Below are positions 12,936-64,000 of a stretch of 64,000 nucleotides of DNA, piece after piece. The stretch comes from an uncultured Chloroflexota bacterium (GTDB taxonomy: Bacteria > Chloroflexota > Limnocylindria > Limnocylindrales > CSP1-4): NCBI GenBank assembly GCA_947085195.1, contig CAMTVM010000026.1, positions 627-64,626 of the forward strand, written 5' to 3'. A model generated the notes under the pieces. The model made no database searches. It was not told the origin of the DNA and saw only the letters and a list, made by a program, of their open reading frames with translations. The translations under genes and the position numbers were made by a program. How positions within the stretch are numbered: position 1 is the stretch's first letter; every line of letters starts with the position of its first letter.

Positions 12936-13314
12936 TCAGGCGAGGATCTCGACCGGCAGACCCGCAGCGGTGGCCGCGGCGGCCTGACGCGCATCGAAGG
13001 TGACGAACGCGTCGAGGTCTGCAGCGACCGCCAGCGCCGATGCCACGTGGATCGTGTCCAGCGACCGAAGGGTCGGCGGCGGGAGGATGCCAGCCGGACG
13101 CTCATCGAGGATCGTCGGCACGCTCCCCCAGGAGCTCGGCCAGGGCCGATTGTCTCCCCACCCGCGGGCACGGGGTCCGGGAACGGAAGCCGCCGGATGG
13201 CCGGACGGGCGCGGCCCCCGGCGACCAGGCGGTCGATGGCGCAGGCCGGGACGTCCTCGCGATCGAACACGACGGTCTCATCCGGGTCGAGATGGTCGTC
13301 GACCTCGGCCACAT
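12936..13314 (-). pseudogene. Frameshifted PIN-domain toxin remnant
   Basis: Only the C-terminal 61 codons (12936..13121) are in frame: LRSLDTIHVASALAVAADLDAFVTFDARQAAAATAAGLPV. Plausible N-terminal pieces (VVFDRED..., ALAELLGE...) lie in the two other frames. The upstream boundary is approximate. Confidence 0.4.
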
Positions 13315-13346
13315 CGCCGGCACCGTATGCGGGCACAGTGGCAGGG

Positions 13347-13751
13347 TCAAGCGGCCGGAATGTCCGCCGGCCCCATGATCTGCACCATGCGTCCGGCGCC
13401 ACGGTGCAGCCTGTGGTCCAGGGTGACGACGGACGCCTCCGTCGCCATCGCGAGCGCCACGTACTCGGCGTCGTAGGTCTTCGCCCACCCGAGTGACTCG
13501 GCGATCTCGGCGGCACGCAGATGGTGGCCGTCGGGCACCAGGATCCGGATGGGGAGGGCAAGCAGGCGCACCAGGCTTGCGCGCGCGTGCTCGGGAGGGA
13601 TCGCGCCTCGCCAGCTCAGCTCGCGGATCACCGAGACGGACTCAGAGAGCAGCAGCGGCGGCCCGAGGAGCTCGTGCCCCGAGAGCGGACCAAGTCCCCC
13701 GCCGGCGAGACAGGCTTCCGTGGCAACGCTGGCGTCGACCACCAACCGCAC
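13347..13751 (-). CDS. PIN-domain toxin
   Basis: GTG at 13751 gives VRLVVDASVATEACL...; C-terminal YDAEYVALAMATEASVVTLDHRL. It starts 3 nt after the stop of the upstream HTH gene. Confidence 0.75.
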   Translation of the reverse strand: MRLVVDASVATEACLAGGGLGPLSGHELLGPPLLLSESVSVIRELSWRGAIPPEHARASLVRLLALPIRILVPDGHHLRAAEIAESLGWAKTYDAEYVALAMATEASVVTLDHRLHRGAGRMVQIMGPADIPAA

Positions 13752-13753
13752 GT

Positions 13754-14008
13754 CTAGTGTCCCTGCCGCGAGCGCCGCACGGCGACGACGACATTGGGCA
13801 TCGGGGCGCCCCAGAAGGTCGTCCGCCACTCGGCCGGCGTCCCAGCGGCTTCCGCAGCAACGCCGAGCAGCTCTCCCAGGTCACGCTCGTCGATCACGTG
13901 CTGCGTACCGACCTTCGATGCCCGAAGTCGACCCTCGCGAATCCAGCGCCGGATCGTCTCGGGGTGACGTCCCGTGCGTCGTGCAGCTTCCGGTACGGTG
14001 ATCATCAT
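13754..14008 (-). CDS. Excisionase/MerR-type HTH antitoxin partner of the PIN toxin
   Basis: MMITVPEAARRTGRHPETIRRWIREGRLRASKVG is an HTH_17-like motif. It sits directly upstream of PIN gene 13347..13751. Confidence 0.7.
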   Translation of the reverse strand: MMITVPEAARRTGRHPETIRRWIREGRLRASKVGTQHVIDERDLGELLGVAAEAAGTPAEWRTTFWGAPMPNVVVAVRRSRQGH

Positions 14009-14073
14009 CGGGCTGCTCCGTCATGCGTGGGTTGTAGTATGCAACAACATGTGTCGCAAGTGCAAGGCCTCCC

Positions 14074-14481
14074 CTACTCCGGGGCGATCAGCTCGAGAGT
14101 CGGGAAGTACGTGCGGTAGCGCGACGCGTCGCGCGTGAGCAGCCGGTAGCCGGCAACCGCGGCATGTGCGCCGATGTAGAAGTCCGGCAGCGGCGATCGC
14201 CTGCTTCCACCGCGGCGGCGGTAGTCCAGGTAGCAGTGGCCAGCGAGAAACGCCGCAGTGTACGGGAGGTCCTCCCGACGGAAGAGGCCTGGATCCAAGG
14301 CGTCGTCGAGTGCCTCAATGGTCAGGTAAGTCGCGGACACCTCGCCGTAGATGATGGGATTGATGACCAGTACGGCCTCCTCGGCTGCGTCCGCGATCGC
14401 GGCGGCTGACCACGGAGCCCACACCGGGTTTGACGTGAGGATGTCCACAAGGACGTTCGTGTCCACGAGGACCGGGGTCAT
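14074..14481 (-). CDS. vapC: PIN-domain toxin VapC
   Basis: MTPVLVDTNVLVDIL...; DFYIGAHAAVAGYRLLTRD. 4-nt overlap with the upstream AbrB-type antitoxin. Confidence 0.85.
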   Translation of the reverse strand: MTPVLVDTNVLVDILTSNPVWAPWSAAAIADAAEEAVLVINPIIYGEVSATYLTIEALDDALDPGLFRREDLPYTAAFLAGHCYLDYRRRGGSRRSPLPDFYIGAHAAVAGYRLLTRDASRYRTYFPTLELIAPE

Positions 14482-14717
14482 GTTTCACCCCGCATGAGGG
14501 CCATGAGTTCGTCCGTGGTCATGCGCGTCCGAGCCGGATGTGCCCGCAGGTGGCGGATGACGAGCTCGCCCCGGGTGGGCCGACGAGCCTCGGCCGCCTT
14601 CACGAGCATCACGAGGTCGCCGTCCACGATGAACTCGACCTCGGTGTTCGGCAGGAACCCTGCCAGCTCCCGGATGGCCTGCGGGATGGTCACCTGTCCC
14701 TTCGACGTGATGCGCAC
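14478..14717 (-). CDS. vapB: AbrB/MazE/SpoVT-family antitoxin VapB
   Basis: MRITSKGQVTIPQAIRELAG is the SpoVT-AbrB looped-hinge-helix signature. Confidence 0.85.
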   Translation of the reverse strand: MRITSKGQVTIPQAIRELAGFLPNTEVEFIVDGDLVMLVKAAEARRPTRGELVIRHLRAHPARTRMTTDELMALMRGET

Positions 14718-14771
14718 GGTCTCGCCTCCTGTTCTTACTGATAGAAGTAATACCGCGTTGACTTCAAGCCG

Positions 14772-15569
14772 TCAAGGTGTCGCCCGGCAGGCAAGCCCGA
14801 GGTACAGCGCGATGTCCGCCCCCACGTGGACGCCGATCGGGATCCACAGCGAGCCCAACCTCCACCGCGCGATACCAGCGGCGATGCCGACCGCGGAGAG
14901 CATGGCGATGTGCACCGGGAGCAGCGCGACGACCTCCGGGCCCGCATGGACGATCCCGAACACGAGCCCCTGGAACGCGATCGCCGCGGTCACCGGAACC
15001 AGCCTCCCCAGGACGGCCTGCAGGATGCCGCGGTAGGCCACCTCCTCCAGGACGCCATTCGCGATGCCGAACAGGAGGGCGGGCACGATGGCGCCGACGG
15101 GGATGGCGAACTCGATCCGGCCGAAGAAGGGCCCGGCGATGACCGGGCCGATAGCCGTGCCGCCGATGCCGAGGACGACGACGCCGCCGAGCGCCAGCGC
15201 GAGGTCCGCGCGCCCGGGGCGCCGGAGCCCCAGCTCCGCGACCCCCACGCGGTGCACGACCGTGACAAGCACGGCCAGCCCCAGGCCAGCGGCGGCGATG
15301 ACCAGCCGTCGCACCACGATCTCCGAGAACGGCGCGGCACACGCGGCCTCGCCCAGCGGGAGGTCCGAACCGAGGACCCAAGGCCAGACCAGCGGCACCG
15401 CCACGGGCAGCGTGGCGGCCCAAGCGAGGGCTTCCTGTCGGCCCAGGAGCCGCAACGCCACCCACCCAAGCGCGAGGGTGATCGCCACGATCGGGCGCAG
15501 CCCGGGGATCAGCGCGGCGAGCACTAGGAGGGCCGGTCCGCCGCCGGCCACCACCGTCGATGCCCGCAT
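14772..15569 (-). CDS. CPBP-family intramembrane glutamic endopeptidase (CAAX protease/Abi family)
   Basis: Polytopic membrane protein with EEVAYRG and FGIVH motifs. ATG at 15569 (MRASTVV) in ORF 14772..15695. Confidence 0.75.
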   Translation of the reverse strand: MRASTVVAGGGPALLVLAALIPGLRPIVAITLALGWVALRLLGRQEALAWAATLPVAVPLVWPWVLGSDLPLGEAACAAPFSEIVVRRLVIAAAGLGLAVLVTVVHRVGVAELGLRRPGRADLALALGGVVVLGIGGTAIGPVIAGPFFGRIEFAIPVGAIVPALLFGIANGVLEEVAYRGILQAVLGRLVPVTAAIAFQGLVFGIVHAGPEVVALLPVHIAMLSAVGIAAGIARWRLGSLWIPIGVHVGADIALYLGLACRATP

Positions 15570-57034: not shown

Positions 57035-57111
57035 TGGTGGGCGATACTGGACTCGAACCAGTGACCTCATGCATGTCAAGCATGCGCGCTAACCAACTGC
57101 GCCAATCGCCC
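57035..57111 (-). tRNA. tRNA-Val (anticodon GAC), CCA encoded
   Basis: Reverse complement GGGCGAT-TG-GCGC-AGTTGGTTA-GCGC-G-CATGC-TTGACAT-GCATG-AGGTC-ACTGG-TTCGAGT-CCAGT-ATCGCCC-A-CCA folds as a perfect cloverleaf. Confidence 0.9.
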
Positions 57112-57229
57112 TCGGTTTCGTGCTCACCAAGACCGCATGCCTTGGTGTTATTGCCATGGGCCCTTGACCTACACCGCTCGAATACCGCATGCTAGGCCGT
57201 GTAAGCGATCCCGCACGAGGACCCGACCG

Positions 57230-58192
57230 ATGCCAACCAAGGTCACCATGGCGGCCCATTCTACGGCAGACGCGCCCATCGGCGCGCCCGACAGCATCGC
57301 GGCGTTACTGCCCTCCTGGCGCCGGTCCCTGGCGGCCCGGCGGATCAGTCCCCGGACGATCGCGACCTACACCACGTCGGTCGAGCAGCTGGCCGCGTAC
57401 CTCGACGCTCACGGCATGCCGGCCAGAGTCGCCGCGATCCGCCGGGAGCATGTCGAGGCGTTCGTGGCCGACCTGCTCACCACCCGGGCCCCGGCGACCG
57501 CCCACAACCGGTACCGGGGCTGCCAGGCGTTCTTCGCCTGGTGCACCGAGGAAGGCGAAGTCAAGGCGAGCCCCATGGAGCGCATGAGGCCGCCCCGGCT
57601 GCAGGACGCTCCCCCGCCGGTCCTGCGCGAGCGAGACCTCCGGGCGATCCTCGCCGCGTGCGAGAAGGACCGGACGTACAACGGCGTCCGCGACACCGCG
57701 ATCCTGCGCCTGTTCGTTGACACCGGCGTCCGCCGGGGCGAGCTGCTGGGCATCGACACGGCGCACGTGGACCTTGACGAGGGTCTCGTCAAGGTGAGCG
57801 GCAAGACCGGGCCGCGCGTCGTGCCCGTCGGCGCGTCCACCGTCCGCGCCCTTGACCGCTACCTGCGCTCGCGGGCGAAGCGTCAGGACGCTGCGGACCC
57901 GGCCCTGTGGCTGGGGCGCAAGGGCCGGCTGCTGGAGACCGGGCTCGCCCAGCTGATCCGCACCCGGGCGGCCGCCGCTGGGCTCGATGGAGTCCACCCG
58001 CACCTGTTCCGCCACGCCTACGCCCATTCGATGCTCGCGGCCGGGATGCAGGAGACCGACCTGATGGAGGTGGCCGGCTGGCGGAGCCGGGAGATGGTCG
58101 CCCGGTACGCGCGGTCCACCCGGGCCGAGCGGGCGATCAAGGCCGCCCGCGCCCTGTCCCCCGGCGACCGGATGGACGAGGGGAAGCGATGA
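57230..58192 (+). CDS. Tyrosine recombinase / phage integrase family
   Basis: N-terminal SAM-like domain (TIATYTTSVEQL). Catalytic region GLRRGELLGI-type, HLFRHAYAHSML, final ARY. ATG 57230 in ORF 57137..58192. Confidence 0.85.
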   Translation: MPTKVTMAAHSTADAPIGAPDSIAALLPSWRRSLAARRISPRTIATYTTSVEQLAAYLDAHGMPARVAAIRREHVEAFVADLLTTRAPATAHNRYRGCQAFFAWCTEEGEVKASPMERMRPPRLQDAPPPVLRERDLRAILAACEKDRTYNGVRDTAILRLFVDTGVRRGELLGIDTAHVDLDEGLVKVSGKTGPRVVPVGASTVRALDRYLRSRAKRQDAADPALWLGRKGRLLETGLAQLIRTRAAAAGLDGVHPHLFRHAYAHSMLAAGMQETDLMEVAGWRSREMVARYARSTRAERAIKAARALSPGDRMDEGKR

Positions 58193-58476
58193 GCGACCCG
58201 TTCGACAGAGAGGGCATGCAGCGGCTCCGCGAGAAGATGGACTCCTACCTCCGCTCCTTTGATCCACCGGCGCCACCGGCCCGTCGATCGCGCGTGCTCG
58301 CCAATCCGCGGGACACCTGGGACAAGGCCGTGCGCGACCTGAAGGACCGCGATACCCGCCTGACCAAGACGGCGGTGGCAACGGAGATGGGGATCACCCG
58401 GGAAACGCTGAACACCCACATCGACGACAAGCTCATCCCCGCGTTCCCGTGGGAGGACGCGCTCCCCCGCCGTTGA
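58189..58476 (+). CDS. Small HTH protein (possible excisionase/regulator)
   Basis: ATGA overlap with the integrase stop. TKTAVATEMGITRETLNTHIDD is an HTH-like segment. It is the tail of track ORF 57907..58476. Confidence 0.5.
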   Translation: MSDPFDREGMQRLREKMDSYLRSFDPPAPPARRSRVLANPRDTWDKAVRDLKDRDTRLTKTAVATEMGITRETLNTHIDDKLIPAFPWEDALPRR

Positions 58477-58539
58477 TCCGACGGTAATCCGACGATCGCC
58501 CCGCGCTGGCAGGATCGCCACGGCCCGACCATATTCCTC

Positions 58540-58845
58540 GTGAGCGATGTAGACACGCAGCGAGCTTGGGGCCGGATCGGCGGCCTGACTGCCTGGTCCC
58601 GGCACGACGCCGAGACGATGACCCGTGCGGCCCACCTCGGGTTCCGGGCCCGGTTTGAGCGGCTCGTTGACCCGGGCGGCACGCTGGACCCGCGCGAGCG
58701 GGCGGCCCGCGCCGACCGCGCCCGCCGCGCCTACATGTTGACCCTGGCCGCGAAGTCCGCGGCGGCACGCAGGAAGCCCGCCCCCGTCAGCGGGAGCGGG
58801 CATGGAGGAACGGCGCGTGACCGCCGATCCCCGCACGCAGCGTAG
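58540..58845 (+). CDS. Hypothetical protein
   Basis: GTG start. WGRIGGLTAWSRHD...GFRARFERLVDP...RAYMLTLAAKSAAAR. Coding-like, no assignable family. Confidence 0.4.
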   Translation: MSDVDTQRAWGRIGGLTAWSRHDAETMTRAAHLGFRARFERLVDPGGTLDPRERAARADRARRAYMLTLAAKSAAARRKPAPVSGSGHGGTARDRRSPHAA

Positions 58846-59014
58846 CGCGTCGGCCGCTGCGAAGGAAGACCCTGCCGAGCTGGCGTGCCGCGTCGTCAAC
58901 GTGGCGAGGGCGGCCGAGCGACCCCGGCGCGACCCAGGCGCGCGGGCGCTCGTGCTCCTGGATAACATCGCGGCCAAGCTGGCGCGCCTGATCGCCGCCG
59001 AGGCCGGGTCGTGA
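58802..59014 (+). CDS. Hypothetical protein
   Basis: 70-aa ORF in the co-oriented chain. It overlaps the previous ORF by 44 nt, so the start is uncertain. Confidence 0.3.
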   Translation: MEERRVTADPRTQRSASAAAKEDPAELACRVVNVARAAERPRRDPGARALVLLDNIAAKLARLIAAEAGS

Positions 59015-59181
59015 GCGCCGAGCTGCTGGCCCCGGCGGTCATCGACCTCCCCATCCTCCGCCGCTGGGCGGAGGTTGTCGCGTTCGCCATCGACGCCACC
59101 GAACGCGAGCGGGTGGACGCCCTACTAGAGCTCGCCGAACAGATCGAGGCCGTGCTAGCCAAGTCGGAGCGCGCGGCATGA
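59011..59181 (+). CDS. Hypothetical small protein (56 aa)
   Basis: Not in the track. GTGA overlap with the previous stop and ATGA overlap with the next start. VSAELLAPAVIDLPILRRWAEVVAFAIDATERERVDALLELAEQIEAVLAKSERAA. Confidence 0.3.
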   Translation: MSAELLAPAVIDLPILRRWAEVVAFAIDATERERVDALLELAEQIEAVLAKSERAA

Positions 59182-60473
59182 CCGTCCCGGCCGCGCTGCT
59201 CTCGCCCACCGGACCCGATGGCGTCCGCGTGATCCTTCGCCGCTCGGGCCCGTCCTACGTGGTCGACGTGCCGGACCTGGACGCCCGCCTCACCTTCCGC
59301 GATGTGCGGGCGGACCGCGAGCTGTCGGCGGACGTGTCCGTCAACGTGGCCGACGTGCACGTCCTGCGGACGACCTCGAGCCTCGCCCTGGTGGGCCGGG
59401 ACCGGCTGGCGCGGACCATCCATGACCTCGCGCACAACGCATCGGCGGACCTCTGGCGCCGGGCCGTGTTCGCCGCGACTGAGGCCGTCCTGGAGGCCGA
59501 GGAACGGCTGGGCGGAGGCGTCGACCTCCGCACGGGATCGCTCGGCATGGACGGCCCCGGGTTCGTCCTGGACCCCCTGCAGTCGACCGGACCGGGCGCC
59601 ATCGTCGCCCCCGGCGAGTCCGGCAAGTCGACCATCGCCCGGGCGCTCGCGCTGTCGGTGGCGTCCGGCGCGGAGATCATCCCCGGCGTCCGCCCGACCG
59701 TCCAGGGACCCGTGCTCTACATCGCCGGCGAGGATCCGGTAGCGGCCTGGCACTCCCGGAGCATCGAGGCGATCGCCCGCGGTGCCGGCATCGATCGGCG
59801 GACGATCGCGCACCGGATCACGTTGCAGGACGTGCGCGGGCGGAAGCTGCACCGCATCGGCCGGACGATCGCGGAGATGGCCGCGGATCACGCGCTCGTG
59901 GTTCTCGACTCGCAGCAATCGCTCCTGCCGTCATCCGAGGCCGCCGGGGGCGGGGTCCGGGACCGCGACAGCCTGTTCTTCGATGCCGTCGACGCGATCG
60001 CGCGGCCGGTCCTGATCGTCGCCCACCCGAACCTGACCGGCGCCCGGCGCTGGGAGGAGGCCGATGGCCGCGTCGCCGGCTCCGAAGTCAACCGGGACCG
60101 GCTCCGCATGAGCTGGCGCCTGACCTGGAAGGACGAGCCCGCCGTCGTCGGTACCTCGTTCCGCCGGTTCACCGCCACGTGCACCAAGTACAACAACGGC
60201 CCACGCCCGGCGCCGGTGGCCTTCGCGGCCGCCTGGACGTTCGGCCTTGCCGGCGACCCCGGAACGCTGACGTTCACCGCATCGGCGCCCGTGCTCTCCG
60301 CCCGGGCCGGCCTGTCGCCGGAGCTGGCGGAGGCCCTCGAAGCCTACAAGGCCGGCGTCACGAGCCCGACCCCGCTGGCCCAGCGGCTCGGCGTGCCGGT
60401 CAATACCGCGAAGTCCCGCATCCGGCTCCTTCGGGACCGCGGGCTCCTGGAAGGGGTCACGGGCGATGTGTGA
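59178..60473 (+). CDS. RecA-fold P-loop ATPase, RepA/AAA_25-like, with C-terminal wHTH (candidate replication initiator/helicase)
   Basis: Walker A APGESGKST, Walker B HALVVLDS, C-terminal TPLAQRLGVPVNTAKSRIRLLRDRGLL. Confidence 0.6.
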   Translation: MTVPAALLSPTGPDGVRVILRRSGPSYVVDVPDLDARLTFRDVRADRELSADVSVNVADVHVLRTTSSLALVGRDRLARTIHDLAHNASADLWRRAVFAATEAVLEAEERLGGGVDLRTGSLGMDGPGFVLDPLQSTGPGAIVAPGESGKSTIARALALSVASGAEIIPGVRPTVQGPVLYIAGEDPVAAWHSRSIEAIARGAGIDRRTIAHRITLQDVRGRKLHRIGRTIAEMAADHALVVLDSQQSLLPSSEAAGGGVRDRDSLFFDAVDAIARPVLIVAHPNLTGARRWEEADGRVAGSEVNRDRLRMSWRLTWKDEPAVVGTSFRRFTATCTKYNNGPRPAPVAFAAAWTFGLAGDPGTLTFTASAPVLSARAGLSPELAEALEAYKAGVTSPTPLAQRLGVPVNTAKSRIRLLRDRGLLEGVTGDV

Positions 60474-60563
60474 CCCGGTCATGACCCTATACACCGGATC
60501 AGGTCACGGGTCACAACACCGTAGGTGTGACCCGGTGACCCGGTGGTTTCGTGGCCCGGTCAC
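60455..60563. repeat. Iteron-like cluster of GTGACC/GGTCAC hexamers
   Basis: Perfect copies: GGTCAC at 60455, 60502, 60509, 60558. GTGACC at 60470, 60527, 60535 (the last two as tandem GTGACCCG GTGACCCG), plus ATGACC at 60481. That makes 7-8 copies in 109 bp, straddling the ATPase stop. Confidence 0.6.
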
Positions 60564-60579
60564 GGAAGGAGACGCTGGC

Positions 60580-60765
60580 ATGAGCGCACCGTCCCTGTCC
60601 CGCCACCGATGGCTCGCGGGTCCGTCCGGCGTAGCCTGCACCGTGCCTGCCCGTGGCCGCGTGACCCGGACGGCCTGCGGACGGCCTGCGACTGACGAGC
60701 GGCTGGCCTGGCCGGAGCTGTCACGCTGCCCCCGGTGCCTGGCCGCGCTGGGGCTCGTCCTGTGA
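60580..60765 (+). CDS. Small Cys-containing protein (61 aa), possible zinc ribbon
   Basis: ATG 60580 with GGAGA upstream. Cys at ...GVACTV..., ...TACGRP... and ...RCPRC. Confidence 0.35.
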   Translation: MSAPSLSRHRWLAGPSGVACTVPARGRVTRTACGRPATDERLAWPELSRCPRCLAALGLVL

Positions 60766-60956
60766 CCTCGTTGCCCGGTCGCAGGCCGCTCTCGATTGGC
60801 GGTACCCATGTCCGGCAGACCTCCGGCAAAACCGGGGGCGCCGTGTTGAACCGCCCCTGCCGTGAGCCCGGGTGCCCTGCCGTCACCAGCGGCTCCCGGT
60901 GCCCAGCCCACCGCGGCCCGGCTCCGCGGCGGCCGGCGCGGGGAGCAGGATCGTGA
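60762..60956 (+). pseudogene. Truncated HNH-endonuclease-type ORF (N-terminal Cys cluster only)
   Basis: GTGA overlap with the previous stop. NRPCREPGCPAVTSGSRCPAH resembles the N-terminus of phage HNH endonucleases that precede P27 TerS genes. No intact HNH core was found in any frame in the 270 nt downstream. Confidence 0.3.
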
Positions 60957-60965
60957 CGTGCCGCT

Positions 60966-61003
60966 GGCCCTCCGCCCTGCTGCTGGCCCTCCGCCCTGCT
61001 GCT
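60966..61003. repeat. Perfect 19-bp tandem duplication
   Basis: GGCCCTCCGCCCTGCTGCT occurs at 60966..60984 and again at 60985..61003. Confidence 0.95.
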
Positions 61004-61074
61004 GCCGGCCCACGCGGGTGGAGCCGACGCGCGCGGCGACCCTTCGTGCCGTCCACGCGGAGCAGCGCCGCGAT

Positions 61075-61116
61075 GAAGTCGATCGTCGCCGCGAGGAAGT
61101 CGATCGAGGCCGCGAG
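61075..61116. repeat. Imperfect 21-bp tandem repeat (19/21)
   Basis: GAAGTCGATCGTCGCCGCGAG / GAAGTCGATCGAGGCCGCGAG, preceded by a partial unit ...GCCGCGAT. Confidence 0.9.
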
Positions 61117-61228
61117 GATTCGACCCCAGTGCCCGTCGGGATCTGGCCGGGCCTCACAGGGGCTGACCCAAGCCGAGGCTTACGCACACAAGCGTGGCGT
61201 CCGATGAAGCGATACTCCGGAGGCCCTG

Positions 61229-61555
61229 ATGCCTGAACGCCGACCGCCGCCCGCCCCGGCACACCTCACCGCAGAGGCGAAGGCCCTGTGGCGCTCCGTG
61301 CTCCGGGAGTACCAGCTTGAGGCGCACCACGTCCCGGTGCTCCAGGCCGCCTGCGAGGCCCAGGACCGCATGAACGAGGCCCGCTGCGCGATCGACCGCG
61401 ACGGCGCCTACGTCGAGGGTCGGTTCGGCCTGAAGGCCCACCCGGCGATCGCGGTCGAGCGTGACTCGCGCCTCGCGATGGTGCGGTGTCTCCGCGAGCT
61501 GGGGCTCGACCTCGAGTCCCCTGCAACGTCCCGTCCACCCACGCGCTGGAGGTAG
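61229..61555 (+). CDS. Phage terminase small subunit, P27 family
   Basis: PPPAPAHLTAEAKALWRSVLRE...LQAACEAQDRMNEARCAIDRDG...GLKAHPAIAVERDSRLAMVRCLRELGLDLESP follows the Terminase_4 (P27) pattern. Confidence 0.7.
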   Translation: MPERRPPPAPAHLTAEAKALWRSVLREYQLEAHHVPVLQAACEAQDRMNEARCAIDRDGAYVEGRFGLKAHPAIAVERDSRLAMVRCLRELGLDLESPATSRPPTRWR

Positions 61556-61559
61556 CCCG

Positions 61560-61781
61560 ATGCCGACAAGGATCCGACGACGCCGAACCCGGGATCGCGT
61601 CGAGGCAGCTCCCCCCGCCGCGCTCCTGGCCTACTGGCAGCGAGCCCACGTCCGCTTGCGCCTCCGGATGGCCGCTGGGGACGCCTCCCGCGAGTCGATG
61701 CGGCTCAGGCGGGAGCAGATCGACGACGACGAGTGGCTCGTCGCGGCCGGCCTGGACTGGCGCACGAGGGTGAGCGCATGA
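61560..61781 (+). CDS. Hypothetical protein (73 aa)
   Basis: ATG 61560 is preceded by GGAGG. Arg-rich N-terminus. Confidence 0.35.
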   Translation: MPTRIRRRRTRDRVEAAPPAALLAYWQRAHVRLRLRMAAGDASRESMRLRREQIDDDEWLVAAGLDWRTRVSA

Positions 61782-62020
61782 CGCGGGTGCGCGCTCGCCG
61801 GGCCCGCGATCGGCGCGACGAGTGGGCGTTTGAGCCCGCGGCGGACCTCGCCCGTGGCGTCGATCTCGACCGGTTCACGAGCCCGCTGGCGCGGATCCTG
61901 GCCTCGCAGGCGACCAGGCTGGCGGGCCACGGCGACCTGGCTGCTGCCGTCGCCCGCCTGACCAGCGCCCGCGCCACCGAAGCCGCCCGCCGGGCCCTGG
62001 CAAGCTCGGATCGCCTATGA
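61778..62020 (+). CDS. Hypothetical protein (80 aa)
   Basis: ATGA overlap with the previous ORF. Confidence 0.35.
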   Translation: MTRVRARRARDRRDEWAFEPAADLARGVDLDRFTSPLARILASQATRLAGHGDLAAAVARLTSARATEAARRALASSDRL

Positions 62021-62083
62021 CATGACCCGGACGGCCTGCGGGGCATCCCCCGCATCCCCCCCACCACAACGAGGACCTCAACC

Positions 62084-62527
62084 ATGGAAATCTCGACCGC
62101 CCCCACCTTTGCGAACCGCTCCACTGCGGCCGTCCGCGCGGATGGCTCAGTCGAGCGGCGCGCCGACGGCCTGTGCGGCTGCGGCAAGCCCGCCGCGGCA
62201 CGGGGCAGCCTGTGCGCCACCCACGCGGAGCTGCACCGCCGCAACAAAGCAGCCGAGGCGAAGCGCTTCGCGGCGCTACCGACACCGGCACCGGCAGTCC
62301 GCCGGTTGCGGACCCCGCCGGCCGTGGTGGCGCAGGCGGTCGACACGATCGTCGCCGCCGCCCGTCGCGCAGCCAGCGGCCGGCCATTGGCTGCGCGCAG
62401 CGTCGCGGCCCAGCGCGACCGCTTCCGGCGCCGGTGCGTGGCACCGGCGTGCACCCGGCGGACTGCGGTGAGCAGCCCCCTGCCGTTCTGCGGGCTTCAC
62501 GGCCCGCGCATCCCCTCGACCCAGTAA
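62084..62527 (+). CDS. Hypothetical protein with two Cys...Cys-x2-His clusters
   Basis: GLCGCGKPAAARGSLCATH and RCVAPACTRRTAVSSPLPFCGLH. Confidence 0.4.
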   Translation: MEISTAPTFANRSTAAVRADGSVERRADGLCGCGKPAAARGSLCATHAELHRRNKAAEAKRFAALPTPAPAVRRLRTPPAVVAQAVDTIVAAARRAASGRPLAARSVAAQRDRFRRRCVAPACTRRTAVSSPLPFCGLHGPRIPSTQ

Positions 62528-62540
62528 ACAAGGAGATCCG

Positions 62541-63074
62541 ATGAACCTTCCGAAGCTGCCGACCTGGACCATTGCGCTGCCGACCAACGTCGGCGTCATC
62601 AAGAAGCTGCACCCACCGACCGACAACCGGTCGGCGTACGACGCCCTCGTGGCCTCGGTCGCCGCCGCGAAGGCCGCGATCCCAGAGGCGAAAGCCGCCT
62701 TGGCCTCCGCCACCGCGGCCTACGAGGTCGCCGCCGAGCAGCGCGCGAAGATCTCCGGCCTGCAGGGTCGAGCCCGAGCGGAGGTCGTGGTCCTGCGCCG
62801 AGACCTCGGCCAGCAGCAGCTGGAGGCGTCGCTAGCCGGCACGCCGGGGCCCGACGCGGCGGGCGCCGTCGTGCGCATCGCGGGCCTCGAAGCCCTCGAC
62901 AAGGCGGCCGGCGAGATTCCCGACCGGACGCTGATCCTCCTGGGCGAAAAATCGGACGCCGAGGTGGCCCTGGCCCGAGCGGAGGGCCAGTACGCGCGCC
63001 TTCAGGCCCGGCTGGACGGGAAGTCCCAGCCCGCTGGGCCCGAGCGCGACGGCGAGCGCATTTACTGGGTTTGA
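62541..63074 (+). CDS. Hypothetical Ala-rich coiled-coil protein (177 aa)
   Basis: ATG start, lowest-GC N-terminus in the island. Followed by GC hairpin CCGCCC-CCGC-GGGCGG at 63076..63091. Confidence 0.45.
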   Translation: MNLPKLPTWTIALPTNVGVIKKLHPPTDNRSAYDALVASVAAAKAAIPEAKAALASATAAYEVAAEQRAKISGLQGRARAEVVVLRRDLGQQQLEASLAGTPGPDAAGAVVRIAGLEALDKAAGEIPDRTLILLGEKSDAEVALARAEGQYARLQARLDGKSQPAGPERDGERIYWV

Positions 63075-63254
63075 TCCGCCCCCGCGGGCGGGCCAGGTGG
63101 ACCCTTGACGACGCAGTTACGCTATGGGGGCTCGGTAGTAGACGAGCATCGCGGGAGACCGGCCACGCCGGCCAACCCGCACAGGTAGACTCCATCCGCC
63201 CCTGTCTGACCGCTACTACGGTCCGGCGGGGGCGATGTCTTGGAGGTGGTCACG

Positions 63255-63620
63255 ATGACCACAGCAACGGCAACCGAACGATCACTCGCCTGGCTGGCCA
63301 GGGACGCGGAGGGAGATGTGCCCAGCCGCGAGCGGGTCAAGCTCATCTACCGCGAGGTCGCCGACGGGGCGAACTACAAGACCGCGGCACGGCGGCACGG
63401 TGTCTCGCCGACGTACGTCTCGCTCCTCATGAAGACTCCCCGGCGTGGCCTCGAGGTGGAGTGCTTCGCCGCCCGCATCGCCATTGCCGAGCGCCGAGGC
63501 GATGCCCTGTACACGGTCCTCTCGGATCTCACGGTCCTCTGGCGACAGATCCGCGCCCAGCACCGCGAGATGAGGGACGAGATCGACAGCCTGTTGATCG
63601 ACCGCTGGGCCCTGGCCTGA
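63255..63620 (+). CDS. Hypothetical HTH-containing protein
   Basis: ATG 63255 with GGAGG 8 nt upstream (track start TTG 63240). YKTAARRHGVSPTYVSLLM is an HTH-like segment. Confidence 0.45.
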   Translation: MTTATATERSLAWLARDAEGDVPSRERVKLIYREVADGANYKTAARRHGVSPTYVSLLMKTPRRGLEVECFAARIAIAERRGDALYTVLSDLTVLWRQIRAQHREMRDEIDSLLIDRWALA

Positions 63621-63903
63621 CCGCCGTATCCTCACCCACGCGCCCCTGCTGGTATCCCCCCACCGGCGGGGGCGTCTCTGTGCCCGCGCAGGATGCCCCA
63701 GGACGCCCGCGGGCCCCGTCGGCGGGTCCGAATACCGGCAGATTGCCGCGGTCGCGGGCCTGACTCGCCAGCGGGTGTCGCAGGTGGCAGCTGCGCAAGT
63801 TTACACACCTGAGCGCGGCCCCGTCCTCGGGGCTGACAACAAGGTCTACGCCCCGCGCGTGGTGCAGGCCGTCGTCATCGACACGCCGCCGGTCGTGTCC
63901 ATC

Positions 63904-64000
63904 CGTGTCATCGCACAGGCGTGCCGGCCGTGGCGTCGTGGTCCCGCTGCTGGCCGAGACCAACTGGTCCAACCGGCAGATTGCCGCGGTCGCAGGGGTC
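63904..64000 (+). CDS. HTH protein, 5' part only (runs off window)
   Basis: GTG 63904 gives ...VVVPLLAETNWSNRQIAAVAGV, a typical HTH first helix-turn. Incomplete. Confidence 0.3.

Follow-up and report, generated by a model that had tools for sequence, protein, structure and literature searches.

A candidate PICI-like phage satellite beside a tRNA-Val gene of an uncultured Chloroflexota bacterium

The stretch of 64,000 nucleotides analysed here (the window; contig CAMTVM010000026.1 of assembly GCA_947085195.1, from an uncultured Chloroflexota bacterium) has a GC content of 66-76% throughout, and its right end carries an island that a first-pass annotation had put forward as a candidate phage satellite of the type of the phage-inducible chromosomal islands (PICIs). 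On its left, the island is adjoined by thrS, infC and rpmI, followed by a tRNA-Val(GAC) gene. From 57230 to 63620, thirteen open reading frames (ORFs) follow one another, every one of them on the plus strand as described at first, with ATGA or GTGA overlaps at four junctions (58189, 59011, 59178 and 61778) and Shine-Dalgarno-like (SD) sequences in front of most of them. A GC3 frame plot supports coding for the island ORFs except at 60474-61228 and, more weakly, at 62000-62500, and an Rfam search of the island for RNA families matched the tRNA only. The features of the locus are collected in Table 1.

Table 1. Features of the island and of its left boundary. Positions are those of the window; L numbers denote related loci; HTH, helix-turn-helix; wHTH, winged HTH; int, integrase gene; nt, nucleotides; AF2, AlphaFold2.
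Feature	Position	Strand	Remarks
tRNA-Val(GAC), integration target	57035..57111	-	ARAGORN; Rfam RF00005, 71 bits
Putative attL core, 45 bp	57071..57115	.	tRNA nt 1-41 plus 4 nt upstream; attR about 2.3 kb past the window end
Xer-like tyrosine integrase, 320 aa	57230..58192	+	PF00589 1.4e-25; N-terminal SAM_4; phrog_1 6e-43
95-aa HTH protein, candidate excisionase or regulator	58189..58476	+	ATGA overlap with int; strong codon-position signal
101-aa conserved hypothetical protein	58540..58845	+	phmmer matches in L019/L020/L032 (3.6e-9) and L036
Small ORF, 70 aa, chained to rep	58802..59014	+	codon-position signal
Small ORF, 56 aa, chained to rep	59011..59181	+	codon-position signal
Rep, RepA/DnaB-type helicase, 431 aa	59178..60473	+	N-terminal beta-rich domain; C-terminal wHTH
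Predicted replication origin, 7 GGTCAC/GTGACC iterons	60455..60563	.	direct and inverted order; less GC-rich spacer between
Four-Cys protein, 61 aa	60580..60765	+	SD GGAAGGAG; weak codon-position signal
Apparently non-coding stretch, about 460 bp, candidate packaging-site region	60766..61228	.	no coding periodicity
Conserved cis motif CCGATGAAGCGATACTCC, core AAGCGRTA	61199..61216	+	15 nt upstream of the terS start
P27-family small terminase (TerS), 108 aa	61229..61555	+	PF05119; phrog_83; TIGR01558; AF2 fold
ORF, 73 aa	61560..61781	+	coding signal; SD site
ORF, 80 aa	61778..62020	+	coding signal; SD site
ORF, 147 aa	62084..62527	+	coding signal; SD site
ORF, 177 aa, helix-rich by eye	62541..63074	+	coding signal; SD site
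ORF, 121 aa, weak HTH	63255..63620	+	coding signal; SD site
Start of duplicated HTH segment	63700..64000	+	25-nt direct repeat at 63734-63758 and 63972-63996

The leftmost gene of the island encodes the tyrosine integrase that the first-pass annotation had named, and the NCBIfam XerC and XerD models likewise mark it as Xer-like, though with scores far below their equivalog cut-offs. It lies next to the tRNA-Val gene, which is on the minus strand, so that the end that faces the island is the 5' end and not the 3' end. The right end of the element was located with metagenome assemblies. Short Logan contigs that stem from four sequencing runs encode Rep and the 177-aa protein in identical form, and one contig of 9206 bp (L006) corresponds to window positions 57086-64000 at 99.7% identity and then continues for another 2.29 kb. 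Its final 30 nt are identical to window 57071-57100, that is to nt 12-41 of the tRNA-Val, in the 5' half of the gene, and its start at window position 57086 is shared by two further contigs (L001, L002). Logan contigs were presumably built with k=31, such that the start and the end of a contig represent the last and the first 30 nt of a collapsed repeat, and from this assembly-graph reasoning we infer an att repeat of 45 bp. Because L006, 2.3 kb beyond the window, terminates in a copy of the 5' half of tRNA-Val, the element is about 9.2 kb long (about 7.7 kb minus an IS1595 insertion), and the window holds its left three quarters. In a Chloroflexia metagenome-assembled genome (MAG) with the same thrS/tRNA-Val arrangement (ThrRS 65% identical), the site is empty.

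With the island on the 5' side of the tRNA gene, the displaced fragment is a 5' fragment situated upstream of it. This configuration is probably the less common one. It is explicitly permitted by the Islander algorithm (PMC4383910), and it also recurs among the relatives of the element, where homologous Xer-like integrases sit at tRNA-Val(GAC) in L036 and at tRNA-Arg(TCT) in L019/L020 with the same tRNA 5'-end geometry. In all three cases, this integrase subfamily is found beside the 5' end of a minus-strand tRNA gene (window 57035-57230, L036 779-1909, L019 5950-7065), with 45% identity between the integrases of the window and of L019. As these islands duplicate the 5' half of the tRNA, they must supply the promoter of the regenerated gene. 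A separate observation is that, between tRNA and int, the window and L036 have in common a CTTGACCTACRCCGC...CATGCTA element.

The second module of the island is a replication gene with a repeat cluster at its 3' end. Rep had been described as a RecA-fold ATPase with Walker A (APGESGKS) and Walker B (LVVLDS) motifs and a C-terminal wHTH, and profile searches bear this out, with Pfam matches to AAA_25 (2e-13) and, at the C-terminus, HTH_20 (1.4e-6). In a PDB sequence search its sole relative was the RSF1010 RepA helicase (1g8y, 1.9e-8), and the AF2 model (pLDDT 89) finds its best fold matches in RSF1010 RepA (1nlf, 5.6e-9) and then in DnaB. The gene has a dN/dS of 0.26-0.30. The Rep core (residues 129-370, approximately) thus has the fold and the Walker motifs of RSF1010 RepA, whereas the island protein additionally carries the N-terminal beta-rich domain and the C-terminal wHTH and adjoins iterons of its own. 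These additions suggest that Rep probably combines initiator and helicase roles, as does the Rep of the Staphylococcus aureus pathogenicity islands (SaPIs).

The hexamer cluster had been placed exactly at the 3' end of rep. Its first position lies 19 nt ahead of the stop codon, and it comprises seven copies of GGTCAC, a hexamer that elsewhere in the window occurs about 1.1 times per kb. This region of approximately 110 bp is almost identical in L003 and L007 despite a Rep identity of 74-79%. In more distant relatives, the same place at the 3' end of rep is taken by other iterons, namely GGGACAT in L005 (10 copies), GGGGACA in L008 (7 copies), GTGACA in L011 (8 copies) and GGGTGAA in L012 (8 copies), and in each of the four they flank a less GC-rich spacer. 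The cluster thus behaves like an origin, because the repeat co-varies with the Rep lineage in the way that is predicted for an initiator-origin pair.

The third element of interest is the small terminase. The assignment to the P27 family, made in the first-pass annotation, is upheld by PF05119 (36.3 bits, cut-off 24.7) and phrog_83 (9.4e-14), while TIGR01558 (42.5 bits, 5e-11) stays just under its cut-off of 45.6. For TerS, as for Rep, the structural models agree with the profile matches: the AF2 model of TerS (pLDDT 89) has top matches in BFVD that are nearly all TerS proteins, with TM scores of up to 0.77, and its top fold match in the PDB is the TerS of HK97 (6z6e), albeit a weak one (E 0.36). 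With a dN/dS of 0.27-0.34, the gene is under purifying selection similar to that on rep.

In front of terS, a truncated HNH-type ORF had been proposed, and this part of the annotation found no support. The three frames of 60735-61236 gave no Pfam match at E<=0.1, and tblastn with the genuine HNH genes of L003 (5703-6143; phrog_589, 1e-12) and of L042, where the gene lies directly upstream of terS, found nothing in the corresponding stretch of the window. We therefore rejected an HNH remnant, given the lack of a profile match, the scant codon-position signal and the tandem duplications in this DNA (60959-60996, 19 nt twice; 61066-61107, 21 nt twice). What the stretch does contain is a short motif upstream of terS, whose AAGCGRTA core (61207-61214) occurs a single time in the 64-kb window. 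When the 60 nt upstream of terS were searched (background 2.5e-5 per nt), 10 of about 17 non-redundant loci of the close clade had the core, at a distance of 12-25 nt from the terS start, and beyond this short motif nothing in the DNA between rep and terS could be aligned across the islands. A role in packaging, within a cos/pac site, or in regulation is conceivable for this motif. In islands that are more distant, its place before terS is taken by a GTACCCRGTTSAAAAAC-like motif.

Searches with Pfam, PHROGs and NCBIfam of the ORFs of the 9.2-kb element detected no large terminase (TerL), portal, capsid, tail or lysis gene. The absence of such a module past position 64000, on which the satellite proposal hinged, is borne out by L006, which to the right of the window (up to 9206) contains two copies of an HTH ORF, IS1595, a lipoprotein ORF, about 370 bp of non-coding DNA and then attR, the end of the element. 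When 11 TerL, portal, protease, capsid and tape-measure proteins were used as phmmer queries against the entire window, there was no match either, and thus no sign of a helper prophage. There is no PF05065 match or capsid homologue in the element, which accordingly lacks the combination of integrase and major capsid gene of the phiRv-type elements, and none of the genes that capsid-forming PICIs (cf-PICIs) carry (capsid, protease, portal, connectors, HNH, TerL) was detected in it. FtsK/SpoIIIE-like Tra, relaxase and partition genes were not detected by Pfam either, and the RepA-like helicase is the sole P-loop protein. On gene content, an ordinary prophage, a cf-PICI and an actinomycete-type integrative conjugative element (AICE) are rejected, the latter by the missing FtsK and relaxase matches.

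Relatives of the element are numerous in metagenomes, among them those of soil. We found 85 Rep homologues at 40-80% identity, almost all of them metagenomic, and those in named genomes all belong to Chloroflexota MAGs (Chloroflexia and Ca. Limnocylindrales); TerS has 106 homologues at 48-83% identity. Where the sequence suffices, the gene order is int, an HTH_17 gene (AlpA/Xis-like), Rep, TerS, five to seven small ORFs and then host genes, and the order int-HTH_17-Rep-TerS, with or without a Prim-Pol domain fused to Rep, is found in L005, L015/16, L018, L019/20 and many metagenome loci. Two of the sister islands are bounded on both sides: L003 (Rep 79% identical) is a 9.5-kb island between 55-bp repeats of the 3' half of a tRNA-Leu, and L015, whose Rep has the Prim-Pol domain fused to it, measures 8.2 kb and is flanked by 55-bp tRNA-Leu(TAA) repeats. 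At L015, a third, partial tRNA-Leu att copy lies 1.7 kb beyond attR (13115-14846) and may be what is left of another element integrated in tandem at this site. A further island, L005 (7400-15900), has Rep, its GGGACAT iterons and TerS between pheT and pheS; here no integrase was called and no flanking repeat was found, and the thrS/tRNA-Val site on the same contig is empty.

In none of the approximately 85 loci with a TerS homologue does a TerL adjoin terS; in particular, no TerL-sized or TerL-like ORF was seen beside terS in 80 metagenome loci other than the islands named above or in the IMG/VR contig L024. This differs from real phages, whose TerS proteins are 34-35% identical to that of the window: Arthrobacter phage RootBeer has terS, terL, portal, protease and capsid genes in order, and terS in the IMG/VR contig L025 precedes two ORFs with 553 and 472 aa. 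IMG/VR contains only four relatives of TerS (three of them at 35% identity) and two of Rep, so that an association of the close clade with virions is not supported. Further out in the TerS family (44-53% identity), an HK97-type capsid gene (PF05065) is located about 1 kb from terS, and here, too, neither a TerL nor a portal gene is present. Two of these loci, L059 (1-9627; TerS 50% identical) and L074 (1-8924; TerS 45% identical), have terminal overlaps of 127 nt, so that their assemblies close into circles of about 9.5 and 8.8 kb. L059 encodes a serine recombinase, a D5-type primase-helicase, TerS and the HK97 capsid protein, while in L074 only TerS and the capsid gene were identified; neither has TerL or portal. 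These circles may be extrachromosomal or packaged forms of satellites.

The Rep family itself is found in other company, too. L003, the closest sister, carries HNH and no TerS, showing that TerS is not universal in the family; it has a different packaging or accessory module on the same type of Int-Rep-origin backbone. Within L003 (4997-6889), an intact HNH endonuclease gene lies between two ORFs (199 and 249 aa) that are paralogous to each other and rich in Cys at the C-terminus. In a Ca. Limnocylindrales MAG (L012, 10001-17492), a Rep homologue of 52% identity with its GGGTGAA iterons is followed after just 2.2 kb by TerL (phrog_9, 3e-46) and a tape-measure-like gene. This locus is either a phage-like context or another reduced element of the same Rep family, and it implies that Rep modules move between phages and islands.

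The remaining genes of the island are small and have few relatives. The 95-aa protein, which is coupled to int and which had been annotated as a small HTH protein following the integrase, gives HTH matches in Pfam and other profile searches that are weak only; there is no HTH_17 or MerR match in Pfam, the match to the AlpA-like profile of the sister islands is weak (E 0.015, probability 3%), and profile comparison of this and the 70-aa protein with AlpA was not significant. No family match was obtained in Pfam or PHROGs for the 101-aa protein and for the 70-aa and 56-aa ORFs in front of rep; in L003, L004 and L005, small ORFs of 56-76 aa likewise abut rep. The small Cys protein after rep is real, but its start lies at 60580; it has homologues in the same position in L007 (5e-7) and L003 (1e-4). 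In the 2.4 kb after terS there are, as the first-pass annotation stated, only small ORFs (73, 80, 147, 177 and 121 aa). The five proteins have no match in Pfam, PHROGs, NCBIfam or PADLOC, nor among all ORFs of about 100 related loci (phmmer), and the two largest of them (147 and 177 aa) have no relatives in protein libraries of 5.8e9 and 1.8e9 entries. Helper interference, capsid-size control and cargo are candidate functions for them.

Beyond these ORFs, an HTH ORF (RQIAAVAG...GADxKVYAPR) is tandemly duplicated (L006 6640-7252), running past the window end, and its first copy looks like a pseudogene, because it has no start codon. It is followed in L006 (7404-8837, roughly equivalent to window 64489-65922) by the IS1595 transposase (NF033547, 1.8e-59) and a minus-strand lipoprotein ORF with an LAGC lipobox. 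The source contig of the window, which is 65,004 bp long, probably breaks inside IS1595.

We consider the element to be a PICI-like phage satellite that diverts the TerL of a helper phage through its own TerS, and give this reading a probability of roughly 60%. The satellite status is one that we infer from architecture, namely from a bounded element with an integrase, a Rep/iteron origin and a TerS with a cis motif, and with no virion genes, and the candidate status proposed at the outset is further supported by the att repeat and by TerL-less, att-flanked sister islands of 8-9.5 kb. On this basis, a signal from a helper phage would turn on the single rightward operon. Excision would be carried out by the integrase, for which the 95-aa HTH protein may serve as directionality factor, the wHTH of Rep would bind the GGTCAC iterons, and the hexameric helicase would assemble on the spacer, so that host priming and host polymerase could amplify the circular island. 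TerS would then bind island DNA, probably in the 460-bp non-coding stretch or at the motif upstream of terS, and would recruit the helper TerL, plus HNH where the helper is an HK97-like cos phage, such that particles made by the helper would be filled with island DNA in place of phage DNA.

Several findings weigh against this interpretation. A helper phage was not identified, and we found no TerL-linked TerS of more than 44% identity. The element has no recognisable capsid-morphogenesis, Ppi/Pti-like or Rpp-like gene (the ORFs after terS have no match of the cpm, ccm or rpp type in Pfam, PHROGs or NCBIfam), no demonstrable AlpA, Stl or MerR homologue as a regulator, and no primase domain according to a Pfam search of its ORFs. 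The closest sister has HNH in place of TerS. Furthermore, the 45-bp boundaries of att rest on assembly-graph reasoning, all sequence beyond 64000 comes from the contig of another sample, and the right end, with IS1595 and the start-less HTH duplicate, bears signs of some decay.

Some of these points would fit a small integrative replicon, i.e., an integrated plasmid or a mobilisable island, that excises and replicates by means of Int and Rep and is transferred, if at all, by other routes. Its TerS-like protein would bind DNA for regulation or partition instead of packaging. Such an element could be expected from the plasmid-type RepA helicase, the TerS-free sister island L003, the lack of recognisable capsid-remodelling or interference genes and the failure to find a helper. 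However, the TerS has a bona fide P27 fold under purifying selection, its position is kept in many islands together with the conserved upstream motif, and relatives pair it with HNH (L042) or with HK97 capsid genes, which indicates virion packaging; the Pfam searches moreover detected none of the relaxase, FtsK-like Tra or partition genes that a replicon of this kind might carry. We therefore regard an integrative replicon as unlikely, although it is the most serious of the alternatives.

A little less probable again is that the island was once a mobile satellite or mini-prophage and is now a decaying, immobile remnant fixed in its lineage. The IS1595 insertion and the start-less HTH duplicate point in this direction, as do the tandem duplications in 460 bp of non-coding DNA where relatives have HNH or other ORFs, and the near-identical copies in four sequencing runs could stem from a single host population. 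Yet int, rep, the iterons, the gene for the 61-aa Cys protein and terS are all intact, the origin region is approximately 100% conserved with L003 and L007 at a Rep identity of 74-79%, the copies of the att core are identical over the 30 nt available, and the site is empty in a relative, though this MAG is a distant one (ThrRS 65% identical). Finally, it is very improbable that we are looking at the left arm of an ordinary temperate prophage with structural genes beyond the window, because, even though the window is cut at 64000 and the Rep family occurs beside TerL and a tape-measure gene in L012, L006 reaches the att copy 2.3 kb further on with no structural genes, two sister islands, of 8.2 and 9.5 kb, have both of their ends defined, and terS is not followed by terL.

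If the satellite reading is extended to the relatives, a more general picture can be drawn, which we offer tentatively and at somewhat short of even odds. Soil Chloroflexota would host widespread, previously unrecognised minimal satellites of 8-9.5 kb, whose sole conserved hijacking gear is a private P27 TerS with its upstream cis motif. They would replicate from a lineage-specific iteron origin with a RepA-helicase/wHTH initiator, their other genes would be orphans that turn over fast, and one branch would use Xer-like integrases at tRNA 5' halves, with the island supplying the tRNA promoter.

Phage satellites shape gene transfer and phage defence, and the experimentally characterised ones come almost entirely from Proteobacteria and Firmicutes, with predictions only for Actinobacteria. 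The first-pass annotation had claimed novelty for this lineage. This is correct insofar as the phylum is a new one, but PICI-like elements have already been predicted, with SatelliteFinder and by the Hatfull laboratory, in high-GC Actinobacteria, for instance phiRv1 and phiRv2 (PMC10085698, PMC10654092). A literature search found no work that joins phage satellites with Chloroflexi, which makes the island a new candidate PICI-like case in a new phylum and the strongest candidate to date for a phage-parasitising satellite among the Chloroflexota. If this is true, the satellite phenomenon would reach into a major phylum of soil bacteria that is largely uncultured, many of the small elements called "cryptic prophage" in MAGs would be something else, and a very small kit of Int, Rep/origin and TerS would become available for asking what suffices to parasitise an HNH-cos phage. 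The minimal kit, the targeting of tRNA 5' halves and the conserved motif upstream of terS are its unusual features.

How does the element compare to known satellites? The cf-PICIs (bioRxiv 10.1101/2022.09.08.507074) have similar left halves with int, alpA and pri-rep and exploit helpers that package with HNH, TerS and TerL, but they encode capsid, protease, portal, head-tail connectors, HNH and TerL, none of which is present in the island. Closer in their hosts are phiRv1, phiRv2 and the actinobacterial candidate PICIs (PMC3986857, PMC10654092, PMC10085698), which are elements of 9-12 kb in high-GC bacteria with an integrase, a primase or replication gene, a terminase and often HNH, and among which phiRv2 is listed at tRNA-Val, like our island. 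Such elements have been proposed, not demonstrated, to be PICIs (PMC10085698, PMC10654092). In layout, their combination of TerS and HK97 capsid matches that of the distant homologues of the window TerS, while the element itself and its close clade have neither the major capsid gene nor the protease gene that usually accompanies it; the criterion of the Hatfull laboratory for candidate PICIs is an integrase together with a major capsid protein gene (PMC10654092).

The general definition of a PICI comprises int, a regulator (alpA, merR or stl), pri-rep, an optional capsid-morphogenesis gene and terS, at a median size of 9.5 kb (PMC10085698). Proteobacteria and Firmicutes account for more than 99.9% of the predicted PICIs, while some were predicted in Mycobacterium and Rhodococcus, and De Sousa et al. 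accept PICIs that have no capsid-morphogenesis component (PMC10085698). Set against this definition, the island has a PF00589 integrase with a specific attachment site (the 45-bp repeat), a helicase-type Rep with an adjacent, conserved iteron origin on its 3' side, a TerS with no TerL in the element or the window, no tail, holin, portal or connector gene across 9.2 kb, and a fitting size; none of its genes is recognisable as the optional capsid-morphogenesis gene, although one of the orphan proteins could serve in this role. From the SaPI-type PICIs, as represented by SaPI1 and SaPIbov1 (PMC6092414, PMC10085698), it differs in several respects: it has no divergent Stl-type repressor, all its genes being co-oriented, it has no primase and no recognisable cpm, pti or ppi, its TerS belongs to the P27 (HNH-cos-associated) family, and its host is a member of the Chloroflexota. 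There is no sequence homology between the two beyond broad superfamilies. What they share is the architecture, with a site-specific integrase at the left end, a helicase-type Rep with an iteron origin immediately 3' of rep, a private TerS in the absence of TerL and of tail, lysis and portal genes, and a similar size, about 9 kb for the island as compared to the PICI median of 9.5 kb.

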